A stretch of 64,000 nucleotides of DNA, from contig CAYGVI010000003.1 of the NCBI GenBank assembly GCA_964353335.1, forward strand, positions 419,694 through 483,693, given 5' to 3'. Origin of the DNA: an uncultured Methanosarcinales archaeon (lineage in GTDB: Archaea; Nanobdellota; Nanobdellia; Woesearchaeales; ARS49). How positions within the stretch are numbered: position 1 is the first letter of the stretch; each line of letters opens with the position of its first letter. The position numbers and the translations under genes are program-made. Under the pieces are notes generated by a model. The model worked only from the letters and a program-made list of their open reading frames with translations. It did not search any database and had not been told where the DNA came from. This document shows, in pieces, positions 7,220 through 62,731 of this stretch.

Positions 7220-7249
7220 CAAAAAAAGAAAGAGATAAAAAATAAAAAT

Positions 7250-8221
7250 TTACTCAGGCTGTTCGTTGCTTGAGCCCATCTTGGTAAAGCCGATTATGAG
7301 GCCGATTACAACCAAGAGTGCGACAAGGCACAACAGGATGACTTCCAAAGCCTTGCGGACTCCGCTTGTCTTTGGAACTGCGTCAACTGTGTTGTTCACA
7401 ACAGGCGGTGGCAGCTGTACTGTAGCAGTTTCCTTTTCCTGGTTGCAGGTTGGGTCTTCTGTTACTTCCATCTGTCCCTCGACGCCTGTCTTGCTGAAGC
7501 CGTCGTTGTATGCGACCTGAATGTTCATGTCGTAAACACCTGGCTTTGCGCACTTGGGAACGCGCAGGTAGAGCTCTTCAGTCTCCTTGTCCTCGTCATA
7601 CTCTATCTGATCTATGTAGTCAGATGCAGAGATTCCGAGGTCTGGAACCGAAACAGTCACCTTAACGTCTTCCTCGTCCTTCTCGCCGTAGTTGAAGACG
7701 CGCACAGTGGTCAGCAATGCCTGGCCTGCCTGAACGTGCCTTGAAGGCGTGAAGATTGCGTCAACGACCTGGAGGTCGTGGCGTGGAACATCCATCTTAA
7801 CGTTGTAGTTTTCGAATACTTCCTTTCCGTCGCGGTCAGTCACAACAACACGCACCTTGTAATTGTCCTCTTTAACCAGGTCGGGGAAGGTTATGTAGAG
7901 GGTCTTGCGGTATGTGACACCGGAGTCCATATCAAATGGTCCGACATTGTCAGAAAGTGTAAGATCCGTGCTGTGCTCAAATCCAGACACAAAGACCTGG
8001 ACTTCAACATCATCCACGTCTTCAGCTGCTTCGAGCGTGACTTCGAACTTGACCTTGCTGTCCCTGAGGACATCCAGGCGGTTGTTCTGGTCTGCGGATA
8101 TTGCGTGGTCGTCAAGCTCCACCCGAGTTATGTTAACCGGGATTGCGGCAACGGCACCGACCAGTGCCAATGCGCAGAGGAGCACAATTCCAAACATTCC
8201 AAATGCTTTGTGCGTGTTCAT
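7250..8221 (-). CDS. secreted/surface type I membrane protein (signal peptide, acidic beta-rich ectodomain, C-terminal TM anchor)
   Basis: N-terminal hydrophobic signal (GMFGIVLLCALALVGAVAA) and C-terminal TM (LEVILLCLVALLVVIGLIIGF). Confidence 0.5.
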   Translation of the reverse strand: MNTHKAFGMFGIVLLCALALVGAVAAIPVNITRVELDDHAISADQNNRLDVLRDSKVKFEVTLEAAEDVDDVEVQVFVSGFEHSTDLTLSDNVGPFDMDSGVTYRKTLYITFPDLVKEDNYKVRVVVTDRDGKEVFENYNVKMDVPRHDLQVVDAIFTPSRHVQAGQALLTTVRVFNYGEKDEEDVKVTVSVPDLGISASDYIDQIEYDEDKETEELYLRVPKCAKPGVYDMNIQVAYNDGFSKTGVEGQMEVTEDPTCNQEKETATVQLPPPVVNNTVDAVPKTSGVRKALEVILLCLVALLVVIGLIIGFTKMGSSNEQPE

Positions 8222-8556
8222 TTTTGTATTAACCCCCGACTTTAATTAGCGTGAAAAACGCTTTTGTTACCCCCAGTTAATAGTGACCTATTTATAAAGC
8301 TTCGTATCTACAACCATTATATAGTAGTAAAAACACAGGTATTAGACAAATGCCGCAATAAGGGCGCCCTACGGTCGCAGAGACCAACCATAGTGAAAGA
8401 ACTTCTCCTTATCGTTCTGTCTCTGGCGCGGTACGCGCCCGTTATTTGTAGTATCTGTTTTCTCTATGTGGTTGCGCCCGTTATTTGTATTCGTTTTTGT
8501 CGCAGTGTGCTTCCAGAGCAACTACATTTTTAAACACCGTGAAATGCCCATAATGT

Positions 8557-10311
8557 ATGATGCGACAGCCGATTGTGGCGATTATGGGCCACGTGGACCA
8601 CGGTAAAACCCTGCTTCAGGACAAGATTCGAGGTAGTGCAATCGCTGCAAGGGAAGCAGGCGGAATCACCCAGGCAATCGGAGCATCAATTATTCCATTG
8701 CAGACTATCCAGACGGTGTGCGGTCCTTTGCTTGAAGCTATGAAGCTCAAGGTTACAATTCCAGGGCTATTATTCATTGACACCCCTGGCCACGCTGCAT
8801 TCACAAACCTCAGGCGCAGAGGCGGTAACCTTGCTGACATCGCTGTTCTCGTGATTAACGTTATGGAGGGCTTTATGCCCCAGACTCTTGAGTGCGTTGA
8901 CATTCTGAAGCACTACAAGACACCTTTTATCATTGCAGCAAACAAGATTGACCTTATTTCAAGATGGCGCCCTGCTGTTAGCAAGCCTTTATTGCAGAAC
9001 ATCAAAGAGCAGGAGCCAGAAGCCCAGCGCATCCTTGACACAAAAATCTATGAAATCGTCGGCAAGATTTTCGAGCTTGGCTTTGAGTCAGAAAGATATG
9101 ACCGTGTTGACGACTACACAAAGCAGATAGCGATTGTTCCGACTTCTGCGATTACAGGCGAGGGAATCCCGGAATTGCTCGTTATGCTTACCGGTCTTGC
9201 GCAGAAATTCCTTGAAAAAGGCTTGAAAATGACAGAAAGCGGGCCTGCACAGGGAACAGTAATTGAGGTAAAGGAAGACAAGGGTTTGGGCAAGACAATG
9301 GACGCTATCCTTTACGACGGCTCATTAAAGGTCAACGACACTATTGTCATTGGCGGCCTTGAGGGTCCTATTGTAACAAGGGTAAAAGCATTGTTCACCC
9401 CTGCGCCTTTGCAGGAATTGAGGGAGAAAAAGACAAAGTTCACGTCGACAAAAGAGGTTGTTGCTGCAACAGGAGTCAAGATTGTAGCGCCTGAAACAGA
9501 AAATGTTGTCTCAGGAATGCCAATCATAGGAAACCCTGCGAACCTTGAGGAAGCAAAGGCAAAAGTCCAGCAGGAAGTTGAAAAAGTAATAATAGAGACA
9601 GGAAAAGAGGGAGTAATCATCAAGGCAGACTCTCTTGGCTCGCTGGAAGCTCTAATCACTCTTCTTACGGAAGCGAACATTCCAGTGATGCGCGCAGGCA
9701 TAGGTCCTGTCACAAAGAAAGACATTACTGACGCGTCATCTAATATAGCGAAAGACCCATTGCTTGGAGTCATCCTCGGCTTTAACATTCCGCAGCCAGA
9801 AGGCGTTCCTGAAAGTGTTTCTGTCCTCACAAACACAGTCATTTACCGTCTTATCGAGGACTACCAGAAATGGGCAGAGCACAAGAAGAAATCAATAGAG
9901 CTTTCAGCGCTTGATTTGCTCATAAAGCCGTGCAAGATTGAAATTCTCAAGGGCTATGTTTTCAGGCAGAGCAATCCTGCTGTCTGCGGAGTCCACGTCC
10001 AGGCAGGCACCCTGAAGACAGGAACTCCCTTGATGACTCATGAAGGCCGCGAATTAACAGTTGTCAAGGGTTTGCAGCAGGAGCAGGAAAACATTGAGAA
10101 GGCAGAGAAAGGAAAACAGGTCGCTGCCTCGCTGCCGCACGTCATAATCGGCCGCCAGCTTCACGAGGGGGATATATTATACTCAGCAATTCCAGAGGAG
10201 CACTACAGGAAATACAAGGAGTTCAAGGAATACCTCACACACGACGAAAAAGAGCTCCTCAAGGAAATCGGCCAAATCATGAGAAAAACTAATCCGGTTT
10301 GGGGCGTATGA
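8557..10311 (+). CDS. infB: translation initiation factor aIF5B (IF2 homologue)
   Basis: GHVDHGKTLLQDKIRG G1 motif, DTPGH G3 motif, NKID G4 motif. 584 aa. Confidence 0.9.
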   Translation: MMRQPIVAIMGHVDHGKTLLQDKIRGSAIAAREAGGITQAIGASIIPLQTIQTVCGPLLEAMKLKVTIPGLLFIDTPGHAAFTNLRRRGGNLADIAVLVINVMEGFMPQTLECVDILKHYKTPFIIAANKIDLISRWRPAVSKPLLQNIKEQEPEAQRILDTKIYEIVGKIFELGFESERYDRVDDYTKQIAIVPTSAITGEGIPELLVMLTGLAQKFLEKGLKMTESGPAQGTVIEVKEDKGLGKTMDAILYDGSLKVNDTIVIGGLEGPIVTRVKALFTPAPLQELREKKTKFTSTKEVVAATGVKIVAPETENVVSGMPIIGNPANLEEAKAKVQQEVEKVIIETGKEGVIIKADSLGSLEALITLLTEANIPVMRAGIGPVTKKDITDASSNIAKDPLLGVILGFNIPQPEGVPESVSVLTNTVIYRLIEDYQKWAEHKKKSIELSALDLLIKPCKIEILKGYVFRQSNPAVCGVHVQAGTLKTGTPLMTHEGRELTVVKGLQQEQENIEKAEKGKQVAASLPHVIIGRQLHEGDILYSAIPEEHYRKYKEFKEYLTHDEKELLKEIGQIMRKTNPVWGV

Positions 10312-42818: not shown

Positions 42819-43388
42819 GTGGAAAGTTTGAAGTCAAAACAAGCAGTGTTAGTGCACAGGGACGAGGCAGGCGCAGAGCTTGCCATGAACTCAATTTTCG
42901 ACGCATTCAGGGAGGAGCTCGACGACCACAGGGCAGCGATTAACGAGAACACAAACGAGCTCCAGTCAAACCACGAATACATCCGTTCTGTCGAGGAAAA
43001 GGTCGACAAGATTCACGCCCGCATAGAGGAGCTTTTCCTTCTTGTCGAGGGCAAAAAAGCAGAGCAAAAAATCGAAATCCAGCCTTTGACAAAGCGCGAA
43101 CAGGAGGTCTTCCAGGCGCTTTATATCGTCGGAGAAGGCATCCCTTTTGTCAGCTACAAGCAGCTCGCCAGGAAGCTCAACATCTCTGACACGCTTATTT
43201 CAGGATTTATCACAAACCTCGTCGAGAAAGGGGTTCCAATCCTGAAAAAGTATGACGAAGGGCAGGCATTTGTGCAATTGGAGCCCAAATTCAGGCAGAA
43301 ACAGGCAAAAGAGGTAGTTATTGGCCTGAATTCTCTGTTGTCACACTGGATGCAGGCTCCTCAGGCTGTTCAGAAGCCCCAGCCCTGA
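42819..43388 (+). CDS. coiled-coil protein with C-terminal winged-helix DNA-binding domain, paralogue B
   Basis: LTKREQEVFQALYIVGEGIPFVSYKQLARKLNISDTLISGFITNLVEKGVPIL wHTH. The N-terminal ELDDHRAAINENTNELQ is similar to paralogue A. Confidence 0.45.
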   Translation: MESLKSKQAVLVHRDEAGAELAMNSIFDAFREELDDHRAAINENTNELQSNHEYIRSVEEKVDKIHARIEELFLLVEGKKAEQKIEIQPLTKREQEVFQALYIVGEGIPFVSYKQLARKLNISDTLISGFITNLVEKGVPILKKYDEGQAFVQLEPKFRQKQAKEVVIGLNSLLSHWMQAPQAVQKPQP

Positions 43389-43842
43389 GCTTTTCCTTCT
43401 TTATCTCGCTTTGAAGCTGTTCGATAAGCTTGAAAGAGCCATCCAAATGGGTTTTTATCGTCGATTCTGCCTTTCTGAACGCCCCTTCCAGGTTTGTGCC
43501 GTTCAGCTCATAACCGATGACAACTTTTCCATTGTTCACAAAGCTGGTTTTCTTGAGGATATTCAGGTCAAGCCAGCGGTGCAGATACTCGTACATTGTC
43601 TGGCGCTTTATGCCTGCGAAAGAGCCCATATCCTCGACGGGCATTACTGCCAGCTCAGGCTTTTTCTCCCTATTGGCAGCCTTCTTGCGCTCTGATAGCT
43701 CGAGAAGGAGCTTGTGCATCTGGGCGCTGCCGTCTTTTTTCCTCGGCAAAAGCCCAAAGCGGGCCAGAAGTGTCTTTGCGATATCCTCGGGAACTGCCTG
43801 TTCAGGCGCCTCTGAATGTTCGAGTTGGATTTTCATTTTCAA
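43318..43842 (-). CDS. hypothetical protein with putative wHTH (174 aa)
   Basis: MYEYLHRWLDLNILKKTSFVNNGKVVIGYEL. Confidence 0.4.
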   Translation of the reverse strand: MKMKIQLEHSEAPEQAVPEDIAKTLLARFGLLPRKKDGSAQMHKLLLELSERKKAANREKKPELAVMPVEDMGSFAGIKRQTMYEYLHRWLDLNILKKTSFVNNGKVVIGYELNGTNLEGAFRKAESTIKTHLDGSFKLIEQLQSEIKKEKLRAGASEQPEEPASSVTTENSGQ

Positions 43843-45616: not shown

Positions 45617-48600
45617 ATGCCCGAAAACGCAGTGTTTGCGGTAGTGAACGACGCGAATGGTGACATTGATTTTCTCAGGAATCTTTTCTCAAAGCTTCCG
45701 CAGGCGGTCAGCAATGAAACAGAGAAAAAACTGGACTTAATTGCGCTTATCGGAAACACTCCTGGCTCGCAAATGAGCACTGAAGAGCTCAAGGAATTTG
45801 ACGAGCGCGCATGGCAATTGCTTTGTGACGAGTTTAATGCCAACCGCGAAGGCTGGCAAAAGAAAAAAGTAATGAATGCCGCAGACCTTGGCAGCATTTA
45901 CGCAGTTGACCCTTGCGGCAATCCTGCCAGCAAGCCTTTTAGGCATTACATCGGCGCTGTTGACACAGGCGGAATCCCTGTGGAAGGGATTCTTGTTCCG
46001 AGGTTCCGTAAATTCTACCGCGACCTTGGCGAGGCAATGAGGACTGCGAGGGGCGAGGGAATAAAAGTCAAGGTTATGGGAAACAATATCTTCCAAGTAG
46101 AGGCGCTTTCATCAGACAGTTATCTTGACTGGCAGAAGGTTGTAATCAACAGGCTGGGCATAACCAGCTCAGGGCTTGATGAAATCACAGATGCTGCTGA
46201 TGCGCCGCTGCTCGCTTATCGCAGCGGAAAATCAATTGAAGAGGACGAAGCTCTGAAAAGCACGTTCTTTTCAGATATGAAGGAATCAGGCGTGATTATA
46301 TGCAATTCAAACATACCTTCCAAGGAAAGGCTTATGACCGGCGAACGCTACATGATTATTGCAGGTCAAAAAAATCCAATTGCGCACGGCAAAATCGCGA
46401 TACGCGAATCAAACTACCTCCCAAGCAAGATTTTTGACGAGATTGCCCACAAGCTTCCGCACTCGCCTGTGGGTGTTTATGTTTTCGACGGCAGGGCAGG
46501 CGCGCACTTGCAGTTTGTCTGGCATACTGAGACAGGCGCGTTCCAAAAGGCATCAAAACACAACTTCAGGCTTCATGAGGACGCTGATGCAGAACAGACA
46601 CGGAATTTCAGCGGTGAACGCGTGCCTATTCGTCCGCCGGATGCAGACACTCCTCCCCCGGTTCCGAGCAGTGAACCAGCCCATTTCTCGCAGCCTGAAG
46701 CCGGCCAGGGAACACGGCCTTTGGCTCTTGAAGCGAGAATTCAGCAACTTGAAGGGCAGCTGGCTGCCGCTGAAAAAATACAGGGGCAGCTTGAGGATGA
46801 GAATGAAGCGATTGTAAGCAGGTCAATGAGGGTTATTGGAAAAGTAAAGCGGTGGGCCACTGAAAGAGTTGCAGCTGCAAAGAAGGATGCAGATGATGCA
46901 GATGCCTACCTGATGGATCACGTTGATGTTTTTACTCTTGTCAAGGATCTTGATGGTTATGTGACTGAGAAACATCCTGAATTCAAAGGAAAAAAGCCTG
47001 TTGAAAGGGTTCTTGGATACTTGAAATGGTTCACTGGTCTGGGAGCAACCATTGACGAGCTGAGGGCAAAGGCACAGGAGGGGCTTTCTTCAAAGGCAAG
47101 GGTCAGTGAGCTCGAGCAGCAAATTGGTGCTAAAAATCAGGAGTTTGAATCAATACAATCGCTCTATGAGCAGGCAGTTGAGCCTCTTGCCAAGCGCCTG
47201 AAGGCAATATGTGGCGGCAGAATCCAGGCTGAAAATCCCCGCGATATACTGGAACAGGTTGCAGGGCTTGTCCAAAGCGGCGAGTTTGAACCTGAATCTG
47301 ATGATAAGTTGAAGCAGCAGTACGAAGCGTTTGAGCGGCAGCGTGTTGGATACGAACAGTCTGCTGCGAAAATACAGGAAGGGCACAAAAAGGCGCGCGA
47401 AGCTGACAAAAAGGAACATGATGCAGAAATTGAGAGGCTCACCAGCGAGCAAGTCACACAATTGAATTCCCGTAATGATGATGTTGATAGCGCACGCGAA
47501 GAGCGCGACCAGGAAAAAGAAAAAGCATTGAACCTGGAAAGAACTGCTGAAAGAAAACAAAAAGAACACGCAGCGCTTGAACAACGACTTGAAACCGCAG
47601 CCACAGAACTTGAAGCACTGCGAAAAGGCCAGCCAGACGCCGGAGAATTATCCAAGCTCAGGCAGGGGCGCGAAGCTGACAAACAGACGTATGATACCGA
47701 AATCGCTGCCAAACAAAAGGAAATTGACAGCCACAAAACCGAGTTGGAAACCAGGCGCAAGAAGCTTGAACACGCAGACAAAATGTTCGGCGCAGTTGCG
47801 AAAATCATTGAATCTGTTGCTCCCTATCTGAAAACAAGGTTTGGAAACAAACTGGTTGAAACAGACCCCATGAAAGTACTTGTAGAATTCAAAACTAAGG
47901 CGCTGAAGGCAGGAGATGAGCCAGGAGCAGGCGAAATTGAGAAGCGCATTGCAGAAATTGAAGCACAGCGTGCGGCTCTTGAACAAGAAAACAACAAACT
48001 GAAAGGCGATTATGCGACAGCCCAAACAAGTATTGGGCAAGTCAAGAATGCTGCTGAACTCCAGCTTACAGAAGTGCGAAAGGGCTATGATGAACAGCTT
48101 GCTGTAAAAGTAAGGGAATACGCTGCCCTTGAACAGAGGCGCCAAACCTCAGAACAAAAGTATGGCAAGGCTGTGGAGGATCGCACTGATCTTGAAGAAC
48201 GGTTGAAAAAGACGCGCGAAGAACATGGCAAAGCGCTTGGTGAACAGCGCACAGGCTTTGAAAAACAGCTTGGCGATGCGCGCAAGCAGTATGAAGCAGA
48301 CCTTAAACGCGCAAGGGAAGAGAAAGGCGAGCCAGACACTAAGCTTGCTGCAAAAGTTACTGAGCTTGAACAGAAGCTGGAGAAAGCAGGCAAGGACTTG
48401 GCTGCAAATCGCAAAAAAATGCAGGAAGCGCATGCAAAAGCTCTTGCAGAAAAGGACAAGTCACACACTGATGCTCTTACAAGGAAGGACACTCAGCGCG
48501 AGGCAATGGAGACTCAGTATCGCCGCGAAGTTGGGAAGAAGGATCAGGAATTGCAGGAGAAGGCAGATGAAATATTGCGCATTCGCAGGAATGCTGCAGC

Positions 48601-49414
48601 GCCTGACGACCTTGTCGCGATTGTGCGCAACTGGGCATCAGCCCATCCTGTGAAGGCGCCAAGGGTCAATATCCCGAAAGGAGCGCGCTTTGAAAAAGTG
48701 CTGGAAGGCATGCGGGCAAGAATTGAGAAAAACAAGGCATATGATAATTTCAAGGAGCCACTGCTTGAAGCTTATGACGCGATGCTGCACGGCGGCGGTT
48801 ATGCAAAGCGCATCAATAACCTGAAGGAAGTTATCGGCAGTAATGCATGCGAACTGGTGAATACGCGAGCGAACCGCGAGCTCAGGACACTTGTCGCGGT
48901 AAGCAGGATGTATCTTGGCAGGACTTCATTTGCGAAGAACAATCCGAAGGAATATGCCCTGCTTTGCGAGCTCCAGTCAGGTCTGCCATTGGGCTATGTT
49001 GCCTCATTGTGGGACCAAATCCGCGCCATTGAAAATGACAAGGATGAGCTTGAGGGCAGGATTTCAAGGCTGCACGACGATTACAACTCAGCACGCTCAA
49101 TAGCAGACTACGCAGACAAAGCACTGTATGCTTCGACAGGGCTTTCTGGCAATGCAAAAATCAGGAAGCTTCAGTATGCGTGCAGGAACTACAGGGTGGC
49201 GCGCGAGGGTGTTCCATTTGATGCTGCAAAGCAGAACTGCTCTTTCAATATTGGAATGTGCCTTGCATTGATTGCAAGCGAAACGCACAATGAGGATAAG
49301 TTTGAGGAAGCACTAAGCGAGTTTAAGCTGGCGCCAAAGAGTGCTTCGAGAAAAGACTGGATGGATTATTGCAAAGGGGAGATTAAATTTGCGCCGGTCG
49401 CACGGGTGGCATAG
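45617..49414 (+). CDS. giant coiled-coil protein (1265 aa) with globular N- and C-terminal domains
   Basis: Continuous ORF. The N-terminal ~330 aa is globular with a possible degenerate calcineurin-like pattern (VVNDANGDIDF ... LIALIGNTPG). A Pro-rich linker is followed by ~600 aa of K/E/A/Q/R-rich heptads and a ~250-aa C-terminal globular domain. Confidence 0.6.
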   Translation: MPENAVFAVVNDANGDIDFLRNLFSKLPQAVSNETEKKLDLIALIGNTPGSQMSTEELKEFDERAWQLLCDEFNANREGWQKKKVMNAADLGSIYAVDPCGNPASKPFRHYIGAVDTGGIPVEGILVPRFRKFYRDLGEAMRTARGEGIKVKVMGNNIFQVEALSSDSYLDWQKVVINRLGITSSGLDEITDAADAPLLAYRSGKSIEEDEALKSTFFSDMKESGVIICNSNIPSKERLMTGERYMIIAGQKNPIAHGKIAIRESNYLPSKIFDEIAHKLPHSPVGVYVFDGRAGAHLQFVWHTETGAFQKASKHNFRLHEDADAEQTRNFSGERVPIRPPDADTPPPVPSSEPAHFSQPEAGQGTRPLALEARIQQLEGQLAAAEKIQGQLEDENEAIVSRSMRVIGKVKRWATERVAAAKKDADDADAYLMDHVDVFTLVKDLDGYVTEKHPEFKGKKPVERVLGYLKWFTGLGATIDELRAKAQEGLSSKARVSELEQQIGAKNQEFESIQSLYEQAVEPLAKRLKAICGGRIQAENPRDILEQVAGLVQSGEFEPESDDKLKQQYEAFERQRVGYEQSAAKIQEGHKKAREADKKEHDAEIERLTSEQVTQLNSRNDDVDSAREERDQEKEKALNLERTAERKQKEHAALEQRLETAATELEALRKGQPDAGELSKLRQGREADKQTYDTEIAAKQKEIDSHKTELETRRKKLEHADKMFGAVAKIIESVAPYLKTRFGNKLVETDPMKVLVEFKTKALKAGDEPGAGEIEKRIAEIEAQRAALEQENNKLKGDYATAQTSIGQVKNAAELQLTEVRKGYDEQLAVKVREYAALEQRRQTSEQKYGKAVEDRTDLEERLKKTREEHGKALGEQRTGFEKQLGDARKQYEADLKRAREEKGEPDTKLAAKVTELEQKLEKAGKDLAANRKKMQEAHAKALAEKDKSHTDALTRKDTQREAMETQYRREVGKKDQELQEKADEILRIRRNAAAPDDLVAIVRNWASAHPVKAPRVNIPKGARFEKVLEGMRARIEKNKAYDNFKEPLLEAYDAMLHGGGYAKRINNLKEVIGSNACELVNTRANRELRTLVAVSRMYLGRTSFAKNNPKEYALLCELQSGLPLGYVASLWDQIRAIENDKDELEGRISRLHDDYNSARSIADYADKALYASTGLSGNAKIRKLQYACRNYRVAREGVPFDAAKQNCSFNIGMCLALIASETHNEDKFEEALSEFKLAPKSASRKDWMDYCKGEIKFAPVARVA

Positions 49415-51638
49415 GCCTTCTTAGCACAGTTATTCCTGCAAGCGCATTGATGGCTGCATCAAGCTGGTCTGCAAGCCTGAGAAGCTTGTTTTTGACTGCA
49501 TCTGTGATTATCTGGCCTGACACCATCACTGTCTTTTTCTTTCTGAGAGTCTCAATAACTTCCTTGTTGATTGTTTCCTGCAGGTTCACAAGCACAGGCA
49601 GGACTGCTGTTTGCTCATATCTCTCAAACGTCTTGAGGTTTTGTTCCAGCTCCCTGAGTGTCCTTGATTCTGCAGGGCTGTTTTGCATCATTAGCCTTGT
49701 GCGGACATGCTCTGCTGCAGTGTGAATCTCATTGATTATTCTCTGTGAAACACTCGCAGCATCAATATCAAATCTTGCCTCTTCAACAGCCTTTTGTATT
49801 GCGTCCAAAAATGCCTGTTCTGATTTTGCGTCTATTGTCTTTTGGCCGCTCTTTCTCTTTACTGATTCTGCAAATACAATTCTGTTAATAACATCGCGCG
49901 TCTGGGCTGCGAGGCTGGCCAGGAGGCGCCTTTGTTTGTCGATGTTTCTAATTATCTCGTCAATTTCAGGAACAAGAACTACGGCTGCAGGCGGCTGGAC
50001 AGGGGCTGGCGCGCGCCTTCTGGCAGGTACCGGTGCTTGAACCCTTGCTGCAGGCGGCACAGCAACCCTTCCTGCGATTGCCGCTCTTCTCTCGTTAATT
50101 GCAGCCTGCAATGCCAAAATGCCGCTTTCAACAGCATCAAGTGCCTTTTTGACAAGCCCTTCGAAAATCTCTTTCCAGTGCTTTATCTCTGCCTGGATTT
50201 CCTTGACCTGCGCCGTGTTGAATGTGGATGCTGCAGTGAATGCCTGGCACTTGGCAGTTATCTGGCCCAGCTTGTTTTCAAGCCACTCAATCAGTTGAAT
50301 CACTTCGCGTCTGAGCGCCTCTGCCTCTTCTGGCGTTCTTGCCGCGCCTTCTTTTCTGATAAACGCCCTGATTGAATTTTTCATGGCATTAATGTCCACT
50401 TCATTTATGCTTTTTATCGCATCATCGTAAAGCGACTGCAGCTGCGCGTCTTTAAGCACAAGGAGGTGCTTTTCAAGGCGCAAAATTATATCATTTAATT
50501 GCTTCAATGAATTCTCAAGGATTTGGAGATCTCGCTTCAGGAGCGCAAGCTTCACAAGCAGTTCTGCCTGCTCAGGCCTTCCTGCAAATGTTTTTACTTC
50601 CTTCTCAATCGCTTCAACCATCTGCCCATACTGCACCATGGTGGTCCTGATTTCACTGTAATACTTCTTGAGAATTGCTTCTATCGCTGCTTTCAGGCCC
50701 ATTATCTTGGCAATGGCTGTCTTTTGTCCCTGTATTGCCTTGATTATTGATTCAATCCTTACAATAAGGTCAGTGATGTGCGCTTCTGTGTTCTTGGAGT
50801 CGCCCTGCTCAGCTGACTTGATTGCATTTTCCGCGTCTGCAATTGCAAGGTTCAATGCCTGCAGGATGTTTGCATTTCTGATATCAATATCATTGGTGGC
50901 ATTGCTTGCGGAATTGACATTCACATTGATGTTGTTAATATCCTGCCCAAGTCGTTCTCCAGGGTTTGGCGGAACAGGGGGTACAGGTCCTGGTGGTACG
51001 GGTGGAACAGGTTCTGGCGGGACAGGTTCAGGTGGAACTGGTTCTGGCGGTTCAGGTGGTCTTGGTTCTGGCGGGGTTGGTCTAGGTTCTGGTCCTGGTG
51101 CCCCTCTGAGCTTTGGCAAAAACAGCCAGAGTATGAACAAAAAGATGAGTATTGGCGCGAGAAGGGAGAGGAAGCCGAACAGGTTCCTTACTGTCTCGCT
51201 GTTTGATGTCACAAACCACGAGTCCATAATCATCCACGCCAGCAGTGCGCAGATTAGCCCTGCGACAAGCGGTGGAACATGGAGCTTTTTCAGCATGACG
51301 AAAAGTACTGCCCCAAGCAGGGCGGCAGATGCGACTGTTGTCAGCCAGTATTGGAACAAGGTTATTCCTGCTGCGCGCAGTGCGAACGCCGCAGAGGCGC
51401 CAAGGATGATTCCAAGGATTGCGCCGAACTTCCTGCCTGCGCCTTTCTTTCCTTCACCAACTCCGCCTTCGCCCCTTTCAAAAATCATAGAGCCGAGAGG
51501 CGCGAGAAGCGCAGCGAACAATCCGCAAAGGAGTATGAGGTCAACAAAGAAGCTGAATCCAGGGTTGCTGGCATACATTTGGGGGATGTCAGGCAAAGAA
51601 CTCATCAATGGTATGTTCTGGAGTCCTGCGCGTACCAT
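49383..51638 (-). CDS. multi-TM membrane protein with polyproline (PEPRP/PEPVP repeats) linker and long coiled-coil domain (751 aa)
   Basis: Four to five N-terminal TM helices, then PEPRPTPPEPRPPEPPEPVPPEPVPPEPVPPVPPGPVPPVPPNP, Asn-rich and coiled-coil segments, and an Ala/Pro/Arg-rich stretch. Confidence 0.6.
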   Translation of the reverse strand: MVRAGLQNIPLMSSLPDIPQMYASNPGFSFFVDLILLCGLFAALLAPLGSMIFERGEGGVGEGKKGAGRKFGAILGIILGASAAFALRAAGITLFQYWLTTVASAALLGAVLFVMLKKLHVPPLVAGLICALLAWMIMDSWFVTSNSETVRNLFGFLSLLAPILIFLFILWLFLPKLRGAPGPEPRPTPPEPRPPEPPEPVPPEPVPPEPVPPVPPGPVPPVPPNPGERLGQDINNINVNVNSASNATNDIDIRNANILQALNLAIADAENAIKSAEQGDSKNTEAHITDLIVRIESIIKAIQGQKTAIAKIMGLKAAIEAILKKYYSEIRTTMVQYGQMVEAIEKEVKTFAGRPEQAELLVKLALLKRDLQILENSLKQLNDIILRLEKHLLVLKDAQLQSLYDDAIKSINEVDINAMKNSIRAFIRKEGAARTPEEAEALRREVIQLIEWLENKLGQITAKCQAFTAASTFNTAQVKEIQAEIKHWKEIFEGLVKKALDAVESGILALQAAINERRAAIAGRVAVPPAARVQAPVPARRRAPAPVQPPAAVVLVPEIDEIIRNIDKQRRLLASLAAQTRDVINRIVFAESVKRKSGQKTIDAKSEQAFLDAIQKAVEEARFDIDAASVSQRIINEIHTAAEHVRTRLMMQNSPAESRTLRELEQNLKTFERYEQTAVLPVLVNLQETINKEVIETLRKKKTVMVSGQIITDAVKNKLLRLADQLDAAINALAGITVLRRPMPPVRPAQI

Positions 51639-52840: not shown

Positions 52841-53287
52841 TTGCCCTGCGTAGTTATGGCAGCAGCAACAGCGGCATTGATGGTTATTCCGCCAATTATC
52901 GCGGGCATTATTATCGGCATTTACGAGATTATTCTCCTGCACCGCGACGTCACTGTACCGACGCACAGGTTCGGGCACGGCATTCACGCTGTTGTTTTCG
53001 CAATCATTGCCTGCTTCGTGACAATGAACACGCCGTGGGTTTTGCAGAATTTCTCATTCCTTCAGGGCATACCGTACATGTCTGCAATAACGTTGCAGAT
53101 TATTGTCGGAATAATAACAATGGTCAAGATTCACGGAGTCAGCGCTGCAATCAAGACAAGTATGGGCGGAATGTCCCTTGGGCTTAGAGAGACCTGGTTC
53201 CACAGCGCAATGGTCGCTGCTCTTGTCGTCGCAGCGCCTTATGTCTGGCCTTTTGTGGCTCCTGTTCTGCCTTCTTGGGCTAAGTGA
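52841..53287 (+). CDS. membrane protein, hypothetical (148 aa)
   Basis: Four predicted TM helices. Confidence 0.4.
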   Translation: MPCVVMAAATAALMVIPPIIAGIIIGIYEIILLHRDVTVPTHRFGHGIHAVVFAIIACFVTMNTPWVLQNFSFLQGIPYMSAITLQIIVGIITMVKIHGVSAAIKTSMGGMSLGLRETWFHSAMVAALVVAAPYVWPFVAPVLPSWAK

Positions 53288-56726: not shown

Positions 56727-57440
56727 ATGCAAGAATACCCGTCGCCACAAAGGAGAAGGATGGCTTCTGAGACTGCAACAGTCATGTTTGTCGACCTGGT
56801 TGAATACACACGAACAACCACTGGTTTGACGCGCGAGCACATTGACCAGCTTCTCAACGCTTTTGAGACTTTGCCTATGCCTGTCCTTGAAAGGTATGGC
56901 GGAACCATTGTCAAGAAAATCGGCGACGCTTTGCTTATCACGTTCAAATCTCCAACAGACGCAGTCCTTTGCGGAATCGCATTGCAGCACACCTTCAAGC
57001 GCTACAATGTCACAAACAGGCTCAGGCACCCGTTGCGCATACGTGTCGCAATCCACTCAGGAGAGGTTTTGAAGCGCGACAATGACGTTTTCGGCGACGC
57101 TGTCAACACAGCCTCGCGCATTGAGTCTCTTTCAAAGCCAGGGCAGGTTGTTTTCAGCGACGCTGTCTTCTCGGCTATGAACAAGAATGAGGTTCCTTTT
57201 GTCCAGCTTGGCTGGCAGCAGCTCAGGGGAGTCAAGTACCCGATAAGGCTGTTCCGCGTCAAGACGCGGGAAGATGAGGTAACGCAGCGCAGGCAGATGA
57301 TAAAGGGCTACATAAGAAGGATAATTGCAATAATCATTGTTGTCGGATTGCTTGCACTGATAGGACACTACCTCTGGCTCAACTTCGGGCTTTCCCAGCA
57401 GATGCAGGAGACTATTGAGAATCTTACGTCTATAGGCTGA
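56727..57440 (+). CDS. class III nucleotidyl (adenylate/guanylate-type) cyclase with C-terminal TM helix
   Basis: VMFVDLVEYTRTT, GGTIVKKIGDALLITF, RIRVAIHSGEV and GDAVNTASRIES motifs (CHD domain), followed by a C-terminal TM helix IIAIIIVVGLLALIG. Confidence 0.8.
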   Translation: MQEYPSPQRRRMASETATVMFVDLVEYTRTTTGLTREHIDQLLNAFETLPMPVLERYGGTIVKKIGDALLITFKSPTDAVLCGIALQHTFKRYNVTNRLRHPLRIRVAIHSGEVLKRDNDVFGDAVNTASRIESLSKPGQVVFSDAVFSAMNKNEVPFVQLGWQQLRGVKYPIRLFRVKTREDEVTQRRQMIKGYIRRIIAIIIVVGLLALIGHYLWLNFGLSQQMQETIENLTSIG

Positions 57441-57504: not shown

Positions 57505-58359
57505 ATGCCTCGTGTGCAAAGCCCAAGCTCGATAGGCTGCTTCAAGCAGTGCCGAAGGAAGTATTATTACCAGTACATTGCCGCGCTTGAGACAAAGCCA
57601 AACGTGCACCAGGTCCGCGGCAACATCGCGCACTCTGTCCTTGAGACTTTCTTTGACCAGGATGTTACAAGGCTCACGCTTGACTCATTTGAGCTTGGTT
57701 TGATGGAGATAATGCAGGACCTTTTGCTGCGCGAGTGGCAGAAGGCAGACGCAAAGCTGAAATCACTGGGCCTTACACCTGTGCAAAGGCAGTTCTATTT
57801 CGAGGACACATTGCTTATGCTTCTCAACTGGCTAAATCATTTTGTCCGCAAGGTCTACACTCTTGCAGGCTCTTTCCCTGAGCGTTTTGCAAAGCTCACC
57901 CCAATCCGCGAGGAATTGATTATGAGCGACACATTGAAGGCAAAGGGAATCATTGACGCGATTGAGGAATACGAAGGGCAGGTAAGGATAATGGACTACA
58001 AGACAAGCAGCCACAGCGACGAGGAGGAATACCGCCTGCAATTGGCAATTTACACTTTGCTGTATCACGAAAAGCACGGAAAGCTGCCTGACAAGGCAGG
58101 GATTTACTTCCTGAAAGACAGGCCGAAGTTTATTGACGTTGACGAGTCATTGCTTGCTCTTGCAAGGAGGGAAATCGGGCTGATTCACAAGCACACCCAG
58201 TCAGACAAGGTCATTGACTATCCCCGAAGCCCGAGCAAGCTTTGCAAGTGGTCAACAGGGCAGTGTGATTTCTTGGCGGTCTGCAAGCCGTTTGACCCGC
58301 ACCCTGACGAGCAGGCATTTATTTCAGAGGCTGAGATGATAAAGAAGGCAGCCGACTAA
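57505..58359 (+). CDS. Cas4-like/RecB-family PD-(D/E)xK nuclease (DUF83-like) with Cys cluster
   Basis: N-terminal Cys residues (SIGCFKQCRRKYYYQY), a D..K catalytic pattern (IMDYKTS) and a C-terminal CKWSTGQCDFLAVC. Confidence 0.55.
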   Translation: MPRVQSPSSIGCFKQCRRKYYYQYIAALETKPNVHQVRGNIAHSVLETFFDQDVTRLTLDSFELGLMEIMQDLLLREWQKADAKLKSLGLTPVQRQFYFEDTLLMLLNWLNHFVRKVYTLAGSFPERFAKLTPIREELIMSDTLKAKGIIDAIEEYEGQVRIMDYKTSSHSDEEEYRLQLAIYTLLYHEKHGKLPDKAGIYFLKDRPKFIDVDESLLALARREIGLIHKHTQSDKVIDYPRSPSKLCKWSTGQCDFLAVCKPFDPHPDEQAFISEAEMIKKAAD

Positions 58360-59007: not shown

Positions 59008-59961
59008 TTAATTGTAAAATACGCTCTCGAAAGTATGCGGTTTATTGTCTGCTGTGAACTCTACCTTAACAGTTGCATTTGGACCCACATAAAGAAAATA
59101 CCTGTCTTTTTTGCGCATAACTATCGGTGCTCTAAGGTGATAGTGCCCGAATACGTTTAATGCCGGCTTGAATTTTTCATCAACTTCAACAGCGCCCTTG
59201 TCAACTCCGAATTTTGCCATGGGTTGTCCTTCCTTGTAATGAGGGTCCCATTGCTGGATTTCTGGCTTGTAAGCTTTGTGTGTGACAAAGACGTCAATTT
59301 TCCCAGTGTGCTTAAGCAGCATTTTGGCTAATTCAGATGTTTCTTTAGTGTCATAAAATTGCAAGTGCTGGTATAAATCAGGGAATTTGTTTGCTGCCTC
59401 AAAGGCTTCACCTGTTGCAGGAAGGCCTGCTATAACAAGTCCTTTGAATTCAGCGGTTTTTCCGAGCAGGTAATTGACTGCGCTTAGGCTTTTACGAGCT
59501 GAAAGAGGGTCGTGATTTCCTGATGTCCCAAATCCCAGAATGCCTGCCTGTTTGTAGTACTTGTTTATGCCTTCTGCGCGCGTATTGTAGTGGTTTATGA
59601 ATTCCTGCTTTGCTTCTTCCTCTGCGTTTAATACTTCGTTCACTGTAGGGTGATTTTGCAGGAAGTTCTGGACCTGTGCCTTTTTTCCCTCTGTTGGAGA
59701 CTCACTAAACTCCTGATAAAGCGCATTAAATTGCTGCAGTTCCTCTTCACTTGCCTTGCTTTCTGGCTGGTGCTTCCTTTTGAGCTCTTCAAGAATAATG
59801 TCTGACTCGAATCCAGCAATGTTGCCTTCTTCGTCTTGAACCTGCTGGTCAAGGTCGTCGCCTGCTGTTATCAGCGCGTCGCAGCCTTTTGCAAAGCCTG
59901 CTATCTGCTTTAATTTCTTCTCGTCGTTGTGGACGTCAGAAATGCACAGCAGGGTTGTCAT
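59008..59961 (-). CDS. calcineurin-like metallophosphoesterase
   Basis: CISDVHND, ITAGDDLD, GTSGNHD and FGHYH motifs. Confidence 0.7.
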   Translation of the reverse strand: MTTLLCISDVHNDEKKLKQIAGFAKGCDALITAGDDLDQQVQDEEGNIAGFESDIILEELKRKHQPESKASEEELQQFNALYQEFSESPTEGKKAQVQNFLQNHPTVNEVLNAEEEAKQEFINHYNTRAEGINKYYKQAGILGFGTSGNHDPLSARKSLSAVNYLLGKTAEFKGLVIAGLPATGEAFEAANKFPDLYQHLQFYDTKETSELAKMLLKHTGKIDVFVTHKAYKPEIQQWDPHYKEGQPMAKFGVDKGAVEVDEKFKPALNVFGHYHLRAPIVMRKKDRYFLYVGPNATVKVEFTADNKPHTFESVFYN

Positions 59962-59972
59962 CGCTGACCCCC

Positions 59973-61694
59973 TTATAGCTGGTCAATGTACTTGCGCCTG
60001 CGTGTGAGCACCCAGATTTCTGTTGCCAGCACTCCTACAAGCACGAGTATGACCAAGCCAAGCAGCATTGCATAGCTGTTGCTGTTCTTGAACCCTGTGC
60101 TCTTAACCTCTGCAGTCGGCGTGATTACGTCAACGCTTTCCTGCCTTGGCTCTGGCTGTGGCTGGACAGCAGGCTGGACAGTCTGATTCTTTGCTACAGG
60201 CTTTGTAGGCTCAAGCGGTATGAATGTTATCGGCTGAGTCTTGTTTTGCTGTGTGACTGTGCGGGTTGTTCCAAGGACATTGAACCTTGCAACTGACTGT
60301 TCACAGTACAGTGCGCCGTTCTCGTCCTCTCCTTTTGCAGTCAGGATGAGCCTTATGCTTCCCTTTGCATCATCTTCAACAGTGCCGCTGAGTGTTGCCT
60401 CTTCCTCATCGTCAGCGTCTATCTCCACATTGTCGCTGTCGTCAAGGTCAAGCTCATCAGTGTCGCCTGTTGCGCTGACTTCTGCTTCAATCATCGGGTC
60501 GTCATTGCCGCTGAAGCGGTTCTTCAGCTCAACTATGACATCAACATCATCATTTGCGTAAACGTCGGCAAAACCTGACTCGATTTCTTTCTTCTGCCCG
60601 CCTGCAATCTCTGCGTAGACTGAAAGTATTGCGAGCTGGTTTTCAGCCTGCATCTTTACTTCCTGTGCTGCGCTTGCGTTCTGGCTGGTGCGGACTGTCA
60701 GGGTGCCGATGCTCATTGCTTTCTTGTTGCAGTCGCTGTCGACAGCGTCAAGGTCAAGCGGGACATATGCATTCAATGTTATTGTGGCTGTCTGCCCTGA
60801 AGCAAGGCTTGCAGGGATGCCTGTAAAGTTAAGCTTGTATTTTGCGTCAATTCCGCTGAAAGTGAATCCTGTCAATGCAGCAGTTCCTGTGTTTTGCACT
60901 GTGAACTGCGTGCTGATATTCTCTCCGCGCGTCTGTGAAGAGGAACCGAGTGTTGAAATCTGCGAAATGCTGAATGCAGCTCCCGGTGTTGGGGTTATCG
61001 GATTGCCTCCTGTCTGGTTTCCGCCAGTTTGATTTCCACCAGTCTGGTTGCCCCCTGTCTGGTTTCCACCGGTCTGGTTTGCAGGCGGTGTTACAGGCGG
61101 CTGAACAGGCGTGATAACAGGGAAATACTGCAACAGGTAAGTGCTTTCGCACGGCTGTGACCAGTTGCGACCATAGCCATATGTCTGGTTGTTGCATGAA
61201 TAGTCAATAAGCGGGATAAACTTTGACAGTGTGATGTTCTGGAGAGTGCCTCCAATAACTATGTCAGATGTCTGCAGTGGGAATGTTTTCCAGTTTGCAA
61301 GCACATATGCTGCTTTCCTGGTGTCATCTGCAGTGTTTCCAAATGCGACAATCTGGGCTGTGCCATTATGGTCGTAAAGCTTGATGCGGGCGTTTCCGTT
61401 TGCAACGCTGATGCTGTTATTTGTTATCTGAGTTGTGATGCTGTTCTTTCCGACGCTGATTATGTTCCTTCCGGTAATGTTGCTTATTTCGCTTGCAAGG
61501 ACTATGCTGTTCTGGATTCCCTGCTCGTTAAGTGAGTTTACTATTGTGTTGACGCTGACAACATCCTGTGTTGTTGCATTGTCGCCGACCACAACTGAAA
61601 CCTCGCTGAAAAAAGAGGGATAATTAGACAAATCAACTGCGAAAACCGCAGGTATTGTGAACAAAATTGCAAGGAATAAAGCAAGCTTTTTCAT
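59973..61694 (-). CDS. cell-surface (S-layer-like) glycoprotein: signal peptide, GGNQT sequon repeats, C-terminal TM anchor
   Basis: MKKLALFLAILFTIPAVFA signal peptide, (GGNQT)x5 N-glycosylation sequons, and a C-terminal LLGLVILVLVGVLATEIWVL anchor followed by basic residues. Confidence 0.55.
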   Translation of the reverse strand: MKKLALFLAILFTIPAVFAVDLSNYPSFFSEVSVVVGDNATTQDVVSVNTIVNSLNEQGIQNSIVLASEISNITGRNIISVGKNSITTQITNNSISVANGNARIKLYDHNGTAQIVAFGNTADDTRKAAYVLANWKTFPLQTSDIVIGGTLQNITLSKFIPLIDYSCNNQTYGYGRNWSQPCESTYLLQYFPVITPVQPPVTPPANQTGGNQTGGNQTGGNQTGGNQTGGNPITPTPGAAFSISQISTLGSSSQTRGENISTQFTVQNTGTAALTGFTFSGIDAKYKLNFTGIPASLASGQTATITLNAYVPLDLDAVDSDCNKKAMSIGTLTVRTSQNASAAQEVKMQAENQLAILSVYAEIAGGQKKEIESGFADVYANDDVDVIVELKNRFSGNDDPMIEAEVSATGDTDELDLDDSDNVEIDADDEEEATLSGTVEDDAKGSIRLILTAKGEDENGALYCEQSVARFNVLGTTRTVTQQNKTQPITFIPLEPTKPVAKNQTVQPAVQPQPEPRQESVDVITPTAEVKSTGFKNSNSYAMLLGLVILVLVGVLATEIWVLTRRRKYIDQL

Positions 61695-61702
61695 TTTTTA
61701 CC

Positions 61703-62731
61703 TCATGCAGGCGCCACAGCAATGTCAGTCAGGGTTGTTCCTGTGACTTTGAGTGCGCTTGCGTTCATGTTGTACAAATCGTGCGTTGCGAGTGCGCGGC
61801 TAGCCTGCCTGACTTTCAGGTCATCAGAGCCGCTGACCATAAGGTACACGCTGCCGTCTGCGAGTTCAGCTGCCTGGATAAGCCCGCATCCCGGAGGAAG
61901 GACTTTTCCAACGCCGTCCCAGAGTGCTTTTACAGCAGGGTTGATTCCATACTGCCCGACAGCAAATCCATTGCTGCCTTTCAGGTCAGGAACCTCGCTC
62001 GCGAGCTTTCCTGTAACAATAGGCGCGGTGTAACCATAGTTTGTCTTTGCGTCTGCTATGAAGCGGTTTGAAATTTCAGTAGCAGCGACAATATCGCTTG
62101 CCGGAGCTGTGTCACCCACGACATTTATGATGCCTGGGTTTGGTCCGAACTGGAACAGCCTGTTAAGATAGTCAATTGCCTCAGAAGCATACATTGTGCT
62201 TGCGACCTGCTTGCCATTCCAGACCACATTTGGTTCCAGCGCGACAAGCGTGTCCTCTTCACTGCCTTTCTTCACAAGCCATTCGAGCTTGTAATTTCCA
62301 TTAGGTCCGTTCTTGACAGGGAAAACAAAAGGAGGTGTTGCAAGTCCAACGTCTTTTGTGAAGTTAAGACTTGGCGAGTAAAACTGCCAGTCAACCTTGC
62401 CTGTCGGGCTTGTGAGCCTCAAACCGACCATTGCGTCAGTAATGTCTTCTTTAGGATTGACAATAATATTGGAGTAGTGGCGCAGGTTTGTCTGCAGTGG
62501 CGGCTGTTCGTCCTGCTTGTATTTCAGCCCATCAACATTTGTTTCAAGAACATCAAACTTGCTTGCGAGCCCTGGTACAGGCGCTGTATAAGAGTCATCA
62601 TTAGAACTGTTGCATCCTGTGATTGCGTGCAATGGCGCAAGGAGTATCATTCCTGCTCCTGCTTTGCCCATATACCTAAGGAAATCGCGTCGATTGTAAT
62701 TAGTGTTCTGAGTCATTTTGGTCCACCCCAA
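61703..62731 (-). CDS. Tat-signal secreted lipoprotein, hypothetical (342 aa)
   Basis: RRDFLRYMG twin-arginine motif, then an ITGC lipobox-like site. Confidence 0.5.
   Translation of the reverse strand: MGWTKMTQNTNYNRRDFLRYMGKAGAGMILLAPLHAITGCNSSNDDSYTAPVPGLASKFDVLETNVDGLKYKQDEQPPLQTNLRHYSNIIVNPKEDITDAMVGLRLTSPTGKVDWQFYSPSLNFTKDVGLATPPFVFPVKNGPNGNYKLEWLVKKGSEEDTLVALEPNVVWNGKQVASTMYASEAIDYLNRLFQFGPNPGIINVVGDTAPASDIVAATEISNRFIADAKTNYGYTAPIVTGKLASEVPDLKGSNGFAVGQYGINPAVKALWDGVGKVLPPGCGLIQAAELADGSVYLMVSGSDDLKVRQASRALATHDLYNMNASALKVTGTTLTDIAVAPA

Follow-up and report, generated by a model that had tools for sequence, protein, structure and literature searches.

A modular coiled-coil protein and a five-helix membrane protein encoded tail-to-tail in DPANN archaea as candidate parts of a membrane-anchored scaffold

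RESULTS

The locus and its two convergent genes

The window analysed here, a 64,000-nucleotide stretch of DNA from an uncultured archaeon (GenBank assembly GCA_964353335.1, contig CAYGVI010000003.1, positions 419,694 to 483,693), carries a pair of long convergent genes, here called A and B, which overlap at their 3′ ends (Table 1). A encodes a soluble protein built of an N-terminal domain, a proline-rich linker, a segmented coiled-coil rod and a helical C-terminal domain, and B encodes an integral membrane protein with a large helical part that is predicted to lie in the cytoplasm. The pair is kept together across a clade of DPANN archaea, and we tentatively propose that A and B are the main parts of a membrane-anchored cytoplasmic scaffold or tether.

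An earlier note on this DNA had described the two open reading frames (ORFs), and their coordinates, sizes and overlap are all borne out by the ORF listing. Sequence searches and alignments yielded orthologues of A and of B at 25-99% identity whose N-termini are conserved, which confirms the start codons and indicates that both genes are real. In scans of the whole proteins neither A nor B reached a curated Pfam or NCBIfam threshold, a PDB sequence search with whole A gave no match, and A, B, three small ORFs and three relatives had no match to PADLOC models at E ≤ 0.01. Indeed, that neither protein belongs to the SMC, Rad50, S-layer or other well-known families holds across the Pfam, NCBIfam, PDB and fold searches. 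Full-length A was represented by only 3 clusters among the 5.8 billion proteins searched, and we found nothing in the searchable literature that describes the A or B proteins, DPANN coiled-coil scaffolds, or TT1561-type proteins (see below) in this context.

The surroundings are those of an ordinary archaeal core chromosome, with genes for alanyl-tRNA synthetase, phosphoenolpyruvate synthase, aIF5B, aRF1, CCA-adding enzyme, Nre and S2P protease, as well as PAC2 proteasome chaperone, ribosomal protein L35Ae and RNA polymerase subunit L. No tRNA genes were found in this gene-dense 64-kb window, and there was no Rfam match at gathering thresholds. The closest named genomes are metagenome-assembled genomes labelled 'Candidatus Nanoarchaeia archaeon' and 'Candidatus Woesearchaeota archaeon', both DPANN, which fits the small archaeal genome presumed in the earlier note. 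No member of the B family turned up on viral contigs, and this, together with the lack of PADLOC matches and the core-chromosome genes around the pair, led us to reject an origin in a defence system or mobile element.

Table 1. Features of the A/B locus and of its surroundings (positions in the window; residue numbers in the encoded protein)
Feature	Position	Strand	Description
Gene A	45617..49414	+	1265 aa (amino acids), ATG start; ORF listing; soluble modular rod protein (N-domain, Pro linker, segmented coiled coil, C-domain)
A N-domain, aa 1-335	45617..46621	+	Metallophosphoesterase-like head (putative); motif I-like VVNDANGD, motif II-like LIGNTPG, motif III-like VMGNN
A Pro-rich linker, aa 336-368	46622..46720	+	Begins RPPDADTPPPVPSSEP; from sequence and proline positions; TPPPVP core kept in relatives P0002 and P0003
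A rod, aa 369-995	46721..48601	+	Segmented coiled coil
HPEF/NPEL helical module, A aa 429-475	46901..47041	+	From module alignment and profile mapping; characteristic of the whole N-domain family, bacterial members included
A C-domain, aa 996-1265	48602..49411	+	Helical; module also encoded on its own, as proteins of 270-359 aa, at loci L005, L006, L017 and L019
Diverged TPR-like helical pair, A aa ~1165-1235	49109..49321	+	Position transferred through profile alignment with relatives
Gene B	49383..51638	-	751 aa, ATG start; ORF listing; integral membrane protein with large predicted-cytoplasmic helical part
A/B 3′-end overlap	49383..49414	both	32 nucleotides; ORF listing
B membrane domain, aa 1-177	51108..51638	-	Short external N-tail (predicted) and five transmembrane helices; hydropathy, AlphaFold2
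B Pro-rich spacer, aa 178-225	50964..51107	-	PEPRP/PEPVP; predicted disordered or extended, ~14 nm as polyproline II helix; pLDDT <50
Tandem repeats in spacer DNA	51001..51074		Period 15/30 nucleotides
B helical domain 1, aa 226-522	50073..50963	-	Cytoplasmic (predicted); pLDDT 80-90; core of all B orthologues, including short forms (P0008, locus L013)
B Pro/Ala/Arg-rich disordered segment, aa 523-557	49968..50072	-	VPPAARVQAPVPARRRAPAPVQPP; a similar segment closes the short B forms
B optional helical domain 2 and Pro/Arg-rich C-tail, aa 558-751	49386..49967	-	Tail RRPMPPVRPAQI; missing from 557-562-aa orthologues
Two small ORFs, 192 and 158 aa	51749..52805	+	Between B and the 148-aa gene; one hydrophobic segment each
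148-aa multi-transmembrane protein	52841..53287	+	His/Glu/Asp invariant; far side of B at every locus with readable flank
Second convergent pair, 189-aa HTH/GerE-like protein	42819..43388	+	71-nucleotide 3′ overlap with the following gene
Second convergent pair, 174-aa orphan	43318..43842	-	
Guanylate/adenylate-cyclase-type gene	56727..57440	+	237 aa
PDDEXK/Cas4-like nuclease gene	57505..58359	+	284 aa
Three consecutive ORFs	59008..62731	-	317, 573 and 342 aa

The head of protein A

Hydropathy analysis of A revealed no hydrophobic segment and no hydrophobic N-terminus or signal peptide, and A is therefore cytoplasmic, as the earlier note had assumed. A conserved domain of ~335 amino acids (the N-domain) was found where a globular domain of ~330 had been suggested. 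An exhaustive HMMER scan of 1.84 billion sequences returned only 20 representatives of this domain, N-terminal in all of them, and these together with the window protein form an alignment of 21 sequences. In this alignment a beta-strand is followed by [ST/N]-D-x-[H/R/N/A]-G-[D/N/E], a helix and a strand with G-[N/D/R/S]-x-x-[G/D], after which come a helical insert of ~90 amino acids, a strand with [A/G]-[D/T/N]-[T/N], a WLHW motif and further strands. These elements follow one another as motifs I, II and III do in metallophosphoesterases.

The earlier note had seen in this region a faint, degenerate calcineurin-like pattern with no intact metal ligands, and weak but convergent profile evidence supports it. 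The best PDB match of the 21-sequence profile was 1uf3 (TT1561), at E 0.007, which covered motifs I and II only and ran from N-terminus to N-terminus (query 7-64 against chain 8-55, only ~50-60 residues). The match depended on profile depth, standing at E 0.0071 with 21 sequences and at E 0.17 with an independent sub-profile of 7 sequences, and being absent with 5. The aligned fragment of 1uf3 is itself a genuine member of Metallophos_3 (PF14582; 30.7 bits against a cutoff of 28.2), and three family members individually gave weak, co-linear matches to Metallophos_3 or Metallophos at E 0.07-0.08, two of them to PF14582. Pfam gathering scores were missed by the whole family, the best of the 21 members reaching 12.8 against 28.2 bits for PF14582 and 13.7 against 21.5 for PF00149, and the window N-domain itself had no calcineurin-like Pfam match even at E ≤ 10.

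When the sequences were compared with the five canonical motifs (DxH, GDxxDR, GNH[DE], H and GHxH), order and spacing were compatible and the ligands were absent. The window protein has DAN, GN, GNN and GQKN at the ligand positions and retains Asp12 and Asn156. Across the family, the motif I Asp is retained in 17 of 21 members, the motif I His in 2/21 and the motif II Asp in 3/21, while GNH, GHxH and the complete set each occur in 0/21; one relative (P0025) retains both DxH and GD. On these weak, repeated matches, the first ~60 amino acids of A would weakly resemble the first beta-alpha-beta unit of degenerate metallophosphoesterases. The N-domain as a whole is probably a pseudo-enzyme derived from such proteins, with a statistical link that covers ~60 residues only and a fold model at pLDDT 36. 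Because every family member lacks the full set of metal ligands, the head probably serves in binding and not in catalysis.

The N-domain family also includes a clade of short proteins (P0023, P0024, P0026, P0028 and P0029; 415-463 amino acids), which consist of the N-domain, the HPEF/NPEL module and a short helical tail. One of them, P0024 (locus L015, 6227..7549), is divergent from the gene of a 984-amino-acid protein without a Pfam match. The setting of this clade looks Gram-negative bacterial, with genes for CTP synthase, CMP-KDO synthetase and heptosyltransferase-type proteins, which indicates that the head module is not specific to archaea. No conserved neighbour was found for these bacterial relatives, whose contigs are short or show none.

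The linker, rod and C-domain of protein A

The proline-rich linker that had been noted behind the head is present, and it leads into the rod. Residues ~360-995 of A are 63% heptad-like, against a mean of 8% and a maximum of 16% in shuffled controls. The earlier note had described 600 amino acids of uninterrupted heptads; the rod, of ~630 amino acids, is instead segmented, with at least 10 segments of 28-73 amino acids separated by conserved, proline-containing islands at about residues 430-490, 523-559, 673, 736-769 and 906. Rod length varies among the aligned orthologues, and in the window protein it is estimated at up to ~90 nm if fully extended. A long segmented heptad rod with globular ends is also the architecture of intermediate-filament-like proteins, a likeness of architecture only and not of homology or filament formation.

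Each protein has a single HPEF/NPEL module, which lies behind the N-domain, in most members directly. The idea that modules of this type are repeated along the rod was rejected, as its hidden Markov model (HMM) found the single source copy and a second copy in P0002, and the other islands differ in kind.

The C-terminal domain, for which ~250 amino acids had been proposed, is a conserved helical domain of ~270 amino acids. Its profile aligns with that of the stand-alone modules of relatives at an hhalign probability of 98.8% (E 6e-17). In the homologous module of locus L005, TPR_1 scored 28.7 bits, above the cutoff of 27.8, and the profile of the relatives' C-modules matched consensus TPR proteins at E 2e-14. 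Across the Pfam, NCBIfam, PADLOC and PDB searches with whole proteins, domains and profiles, TPR in the relatives' C-modules was the only match past threshold. The window C-domain itself is too diverged for any TPR match at E ≤ 1. Seen through these homologous modules, it appears to carry a diverged TPR-like pair rather than a multi-repeat TPR domain.

Protein B is a membrane protein with a helical-bundle tail

Hydropathy and AlphaFold2 both give B five transmembrane helices, where the earlier note had counted four to five; in the model, whose transmembrane domain is of low confidence, they span residues 26-54, 67-89, 94-118, 123-143 and 148-177. Conservation within the protein is highest in the membrane domain, where the invariant residues include D33, P47, G72, G76, G80, Y97 and W98. 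Counts of lysine and arginine place loop 1, loop 3 and the segment after the fifth helix in the cytoplasm in 7/7 orthologues (10 against 3 in the window protein). By the positive-inside rule, B would thus have its N-terminus outside and its C-terminus inside, so that the remaining ~570 residues would lie in the cytoplasm with A.

Behind the membrane domain, the polyproline spacer that had been taken for a rigid element is present in the window protein as described, but its sequence is not conserved: it differs in length and sequence even among B strains that are 95-99% identical (P0005-P0007), and it is Gly-rich in other orthologues. Together with the tandem repeats in its DNA, this suggests that the spacer may be repeat-driven and length-variable, and that the conserved feature is a flexible or extended spacer, by sequence comparison, and not a specific 'rigid polyproline' element.

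The remainder of B had been read as a giant coiled coil. Only ~100 amino acids are heptad-like, and AlphaFold2 predicts folded helical domains, so that B is a helical-bundle membrane protein instead. The mean predicted local distance difference test score (pLDDT) of the model is 64.7, with moderate, lower-confidence values in helical domain 2 (residues 558-737), and its fold matches are only generic elongated helical bundles, all at E >0.07. The APAPV-rich stretch of the earlier description corresponds to the predicted disordered Pro/Ala/Arg-rich segment between the two helical domains, and 7/9 complete orthologues end in a Pro/Arg-rich tail.

Several candidate identities for B were set aside. 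The best PDB sequence match of the B profile, which concerns its helical domain, was the vimentin rod (E 6e-5), followed by spectrin (E 0.03), tropomyosin and chemoreceptor bundles; we read these matches as coiled-coil and helical composition and reject homology to vimentin or spectrin. One orthologue (P0008) bears the source name 'phage shock protein A'. Window B had no PspA_IM30 or Snf7 match at E ≤ 10, and neither family was among the 25 most-matched families listed for seven B orthologues or among the PDB sequence and fold matches. The name 'phosphate/sulfate permease', attached to P0005, was supported by no search and was likewise rejected. In addition, domain scans of B found no Cys-rich, glycosylation-rich, adhesin or other surface domains.

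Conservation of the pair through gene fission and fusion

Every ORF of the retrieved loci was scanned with HMMs of the four modules, and the resulting map was combined with the called genes. B stands tail-to-tail with the gene carrying the C-domain in nine of nine distinct lineages with readable flanks, all of them DPANN (Woesearchaeota/Nanoarchaeia), and the co-conservation of the pair across relatives, which the earlier note had named as a check, is thus found. The junction ranges from a 38-nucleotide overlap to a 12-nucleotide gap, and it is kept despite divergence of the proteins to 18-30% identity.

Protein A itself is assembled differently from one lineage to the next. N-domain, coiled coil and C-domain are fused in the window and at three other loci (L001, L004 and L013); the N-domain is a separate gene at L002; the C-domain is separate at L005 and L019; and all three are separate genes at L006. 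Splitting and joining of this sort, here into one, two or three genes, is a classic sign that modules work together, and it indicates that those of A behave as parts of one machine. The constancy of the junction between the C-domain and B points to the C-domain as the module turned towards B. At L016 the A-type gene (7059..9371, minus strand) holds the coiled coil and C-domain with no detectable N-domain, and the head must be dispensable or encoded elsewhere in that genome. The upstream divergent gene at L016 encodes a 326-amino-acid protein without a Pfam match, in place of the usual 247-amino-acid PAC2.

Neighbouring genes

In these genomes synteny extends over the whole neighbourhood of ~20 kb and takes in prenyltransferase, RNA polymerase subunit L, PAC2, A, B, L35Ae, AsnC and TctA. 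Its variable elements, present at some loci only, are an aspartate-semialdehyde dehydrogenase gene and the two small ORFs next to B. ORFs like the latter in size and position (the likeness extends to these two properties only) lie at the same place in L001, L005, L016 and L017, and there are none in L002, L006 or L013.

The 148-amino-acid protein on the far side of B is 55-77% identical across loci, well above A or B, and carries the motifs YEIxLxxxD..PxHRFxHxI, KxHxVS, ETWxHS and APYxWP..APxLPxW. It had no match in Pfam, PDB or PADLOC. From its sequence it looks like a membrane-embedded protein of metal-binding or hydrolase-like kind, and it may be a third partner of A and B.

A second convergent pair with overlapping 3′ ends lies upstream of A (Table 1), and pairs of like size and place, also overlapping at their 3′ ends, occur in L001, L002, L003, L006 and L013, the likeness again being one of size and position and not of homology. 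In genomes as compact as these, convergent genes seem commonly to overlap. Downstream, the cyclase-type gene and the PDDEXK/Cas4-like nuclease gene that follows it are kept in all long relatives (L001, L002, L003 and L013), an unusual pairing for a reduced genome. Farther on, three consecutive ORFs form another block of apparently orphan genes; a Pfam scan that took in the 573- and 342-amino-acid ORFs gave no match at E ≤ 1e-5.

DISCUSSION

A possible membrane-anchored scaffold

The modules of A and B have clear boundaries, A is soluble and B spans the membrane five times, the rod is heptad-rich, the modules of A split and fuse, the junction with B is constant, and the distribution of the families is narrow. 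It is tempting to bring these features together in one picture, which we hold tentatively: a cytoplasmic scaffold or tether, anchored to the membrane and specific to its lineage, with A and B as the two main components and with a distribution limited to a small clade of DPANN archaea of the Woesearchaeota/Nanoarchaeia type. B would sit in the membrane with its N-terminus out and its C-terminus in, and its flexible spacer would carry the helical bundle and the Pro/Arg-rich peptides into the cytoplasm. A would dimerise via its rod, and its TPR-containing C-domain would dock on the cytoplasmic bundle of B or on the Pro/Arg-rich peptides. Such docking would hang the rod from the membrane, with two pseudo-phosphoesterase heads displayed up to ~90 nm away. 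The His-rich 148-amino-acid membrane protein may join as a third partner. We infer, then, that A dimerises and contacts B, that its head is non-catalytic and that the role of the assembly is structural: it would position or tether something at the membrane, for instance a component of division, of the envelope or of a contact site, and catalysis is unlikely.

Perhaps the assembly reaches further than this. In the boldest version, a DPANN-specific cytoskeletal or tethering machine would combine a five-helix receptor B (perhaps with the His-rich protein), a dimeric A of ~90 nm whose TPR tail sits in the Pro/Arg segments of B, and heads that capture a cytoplasmic or membrane-proximal target, so as to organise division, cell shape or the site of host contact in archaea from which most known cytoskeletal systems are missing. 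We regard this full version as speculative and rather doubtful.

Several observations weigh against the scaffold. The contact between A and B, or a filament built of them, would follow from gene order and module content, and adjacency by itself discriminates poorly because the entire neighbourhood is syntenic. Neither B nor the C-domain accompanies the N-domain in its bacterial relatives, and at L016 A has no detectable head. The AlphaFold2 model of the N-domain, made with three sequences, reached a pLDDT of only 35.7, so that the metallophosphoesterase fold is not established, and the topology proposed for B follows from the positive-inside rule, its transmembrane domain being modelled with low confidence. 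In addition, the membrane domain of B is much more conserved than a passive anchor requires, which hints at a function of its own.

Alternative readings

The simplest alternative is that A and B are unrelated neighbours, their junction reflecting frozen gene order in the compact genomes of a narrow DPANN lineage. The entire region is indeed syntenic in all loci, overlaps are common and another convergent overlapping pair is conserved nearby, and the bacterial N-domain proteins have no B neighbour. Nevertheless, the junction between A and B outlasts divergence to 18-30% identity and repeated fission and fusion of A, it is specifically and always the C-domain gene that B abuts, other elements of the neighbourhood come and go, and A and B share the same narrow distribution; we therefore consider mere neighbourhood somewhat unlikely. 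The helical part of B could instead be an extracellular stalk or fibre for attachment to a host, with A a separate cytoplasmic protein. An ectosymbiotic life is typical of DPANN archaea (PMC11291902), surface proteins often have rigid polyproline spacers, and the top fold matches of B include elongated extracellular three-helix-bundle receptors (Trypanosoma brucei HpHbR), though not significantly. Against such a fibre, the lysine and arginine distribution places the segment after the fifth helix in the cytoplasm in all seven orthologues, which with five helices would put the short 25-residue N-tail outside, many orthologues have a spacer rich in Gly and not in Pro, and the lack of Cys-rich, glycosylation-rich or adhesin domains is joined by fold matches that all stay at E >0.07. 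Since the bulk of B is predicted to be cytoplasmic in all orthologues and A has no signal peptide, a cytoplasmic scaffold fits better, and we consider an attachment fibre, and with it the use in cell-cell attachment that the earlier note had suggested, highly improbable. A surface role of another kind, as an S-layer component or adhesin, was set aside, A having no hydrophobic N-terminus, the bulk of B being predicted cytoplasmic, and no surface domain being matched.

Two further alternatives concern the head. A could be a fused protein of Mre11/Rad50 (SbcCD) kind, a tether of DNA ends or chromosome organiser with a metallophosphoesterase nuclease as head of its long coiled coil; B would then be incidental or would anchor the DNA to the membrane. 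Motif I- and II-like elements in the N-domain, a long coiled coil with weak compositional matches to SMC and Rad50 models, and a PDDEXK/Cas4-like gene a few genes downstream in all loci would suit this idea, but the scores of those matches are far from their cutoffs (TIGR02168 SMC, 13.3 against 567.35 bits; NF041034 Rad50, 9.8 against 1000), and neither A nor 13 relatives have a conserved Walker A motif ([AG]x4GK[ST]), LSGG[EQ] signature or CxxC zinc hook. Walker A and signature motifs turn up in relatives only as isolated chance matches and are absent from A, the islands in the middle of the rod match no hinge models, domain scans detected no nucleic-acid-binding domain, and the catalytic ligands are in no member complete (GNH and GHxH in none of the 21, the motif I His in two). 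The 'SMC/Rad50-like' label of the earlier note thus stands as an analogy only, and a DNA tether is the least probable of the readings considered here. The N-domain might otherwise be an active, if atypical, phosphoesterase, with ligands substituted by Asn, Asp or Arg, which B and the rod would hold near a membrane-proximal substrate, for example a lipid head group or a nucleotide second messenger. The widely retained Asp of motif I, the Asp12 and Asn156 of the window protein with its other ligands conservatively replaced by Asn, the DxH and GD of P0025, and a guanylate-cyclase-type gene conserved five to seven genes downstream are compatible with activity. Yet no member has the complete set, the substitutions differ between clades, as is typical of pseudo-enzymes, the likeness to real enzymes is limited to the first ~60 residues (E 0.007-0.08), and in 1uf3, the nearest structure, these motifs themselves read SNPMGD and GNL. 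An active enzyme thus seems improbable, and a scaffold with a non-catalytic head, tentative as it is, remains our preferred reading.

Implications

DPANN archaea are ultra-small, mostly uncultured symbionts, and little is known of their division, their shape or the site at which they contact their hosts. An outlay of ~6 kb on two structural proteins is substantial in so small a genome, and an important role is implied because the pair is conserved through wide sequence divergence and through gene fission and fusion. If A and B do form a membrane-anchored scaffold, they would represent a new prokaryotic cytoskeleton-like or tether system, and if the head is what it seems, a new case of the metallophosphoesterase fold being reused as a non-catalytic module. 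Four new families, all very small and clearly bounded, emerge from the analysis: those of the N-domain and its NPEL module, of the C-domain, of B and of the His-rich membrane protein. The analysis also offers a concrete docking hypothesis. Overall, we regard the pair as a well-delimited lead rather than a discovery.

Comparison with known systems

The closest sequence relative of any part of the system is TT1561 of Thermus thermophilus (1uf3; PF14582, Metallophos_3), to which the first ~60 residues of A are similar. Like the N-domain, it runs from a beta-strand through a degenerate DxHG and a helix to a second beta-strand with a degenerate GD, and with SNPMGD and IGNL it too lacks canonical ligands. 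The differences are considerable: ~60 of ~335 residues align, the score (12.8 against 28.2 bits) is far under the gathering threshold, and the N-domain adds a helical insert of ~90 amino acids between motifs II and III, always the NPEL/HPEF module and usually a long rod. Mre11-Rad50 and SbcCD share with A a metallophosphoesterase-fold head, putative in A, and a very long coiled coil, and the likeness ends there, as A has no ABC ATPase head, signature, zinc hook or catalytic ligands, and has instead a TPR-like tail and a membrane partner. For a head of this fold that serves as a scaffold there is precedent. In the retromer protein Vps29 and in the B-subunits of replicative DNA polymerases, the metallophosphoesterase fold without its metal ligands acts as a protein-interaction module, in Vps29 as part of a membrane-associated coat. 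These are precedents for a pseudo-enzyme scaffold only, since no search found sequence similarity to them and their architectures and partners are unrelated.

The rod of A invites comparison with golgins, crescentin, FilP/Scy and vimentin-type proteins, in which segmented heptad rods of hundreds of residues are likewise interrupted by non-helical breaks and end in globular or adaptor domains. As proposed for A, attachment to membranes is through a partner. All scores against such tethers and cytoskeletal proteins were under their cutoffs, including a weak touch of the L006 rod gene on the crescentin rod model, and the head and tail of A are unrelated to theirs. B finds its nearest counterpart in EzrA-type scaffolds, in which a membrane anchor is followed by cytoplasmic antiparallel helical bundles of spectrin-like kind. 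B likewise has a membrane anchor and then a large cytoplasmic array of helical bundles, as predicted, with the weak spectrin match given above. It differs in having five conserved transmembrane helices rather than one, a Pro/Gly spacer and Pro/Arg segments; homology between the two is not detectable, and EzrA was absent from the fold and sequence matches of B. A membrane-anchored coiled-coil scaffold is thus a known general kind of structure, and the families described here and the combination of their modules are new and extremely rare.

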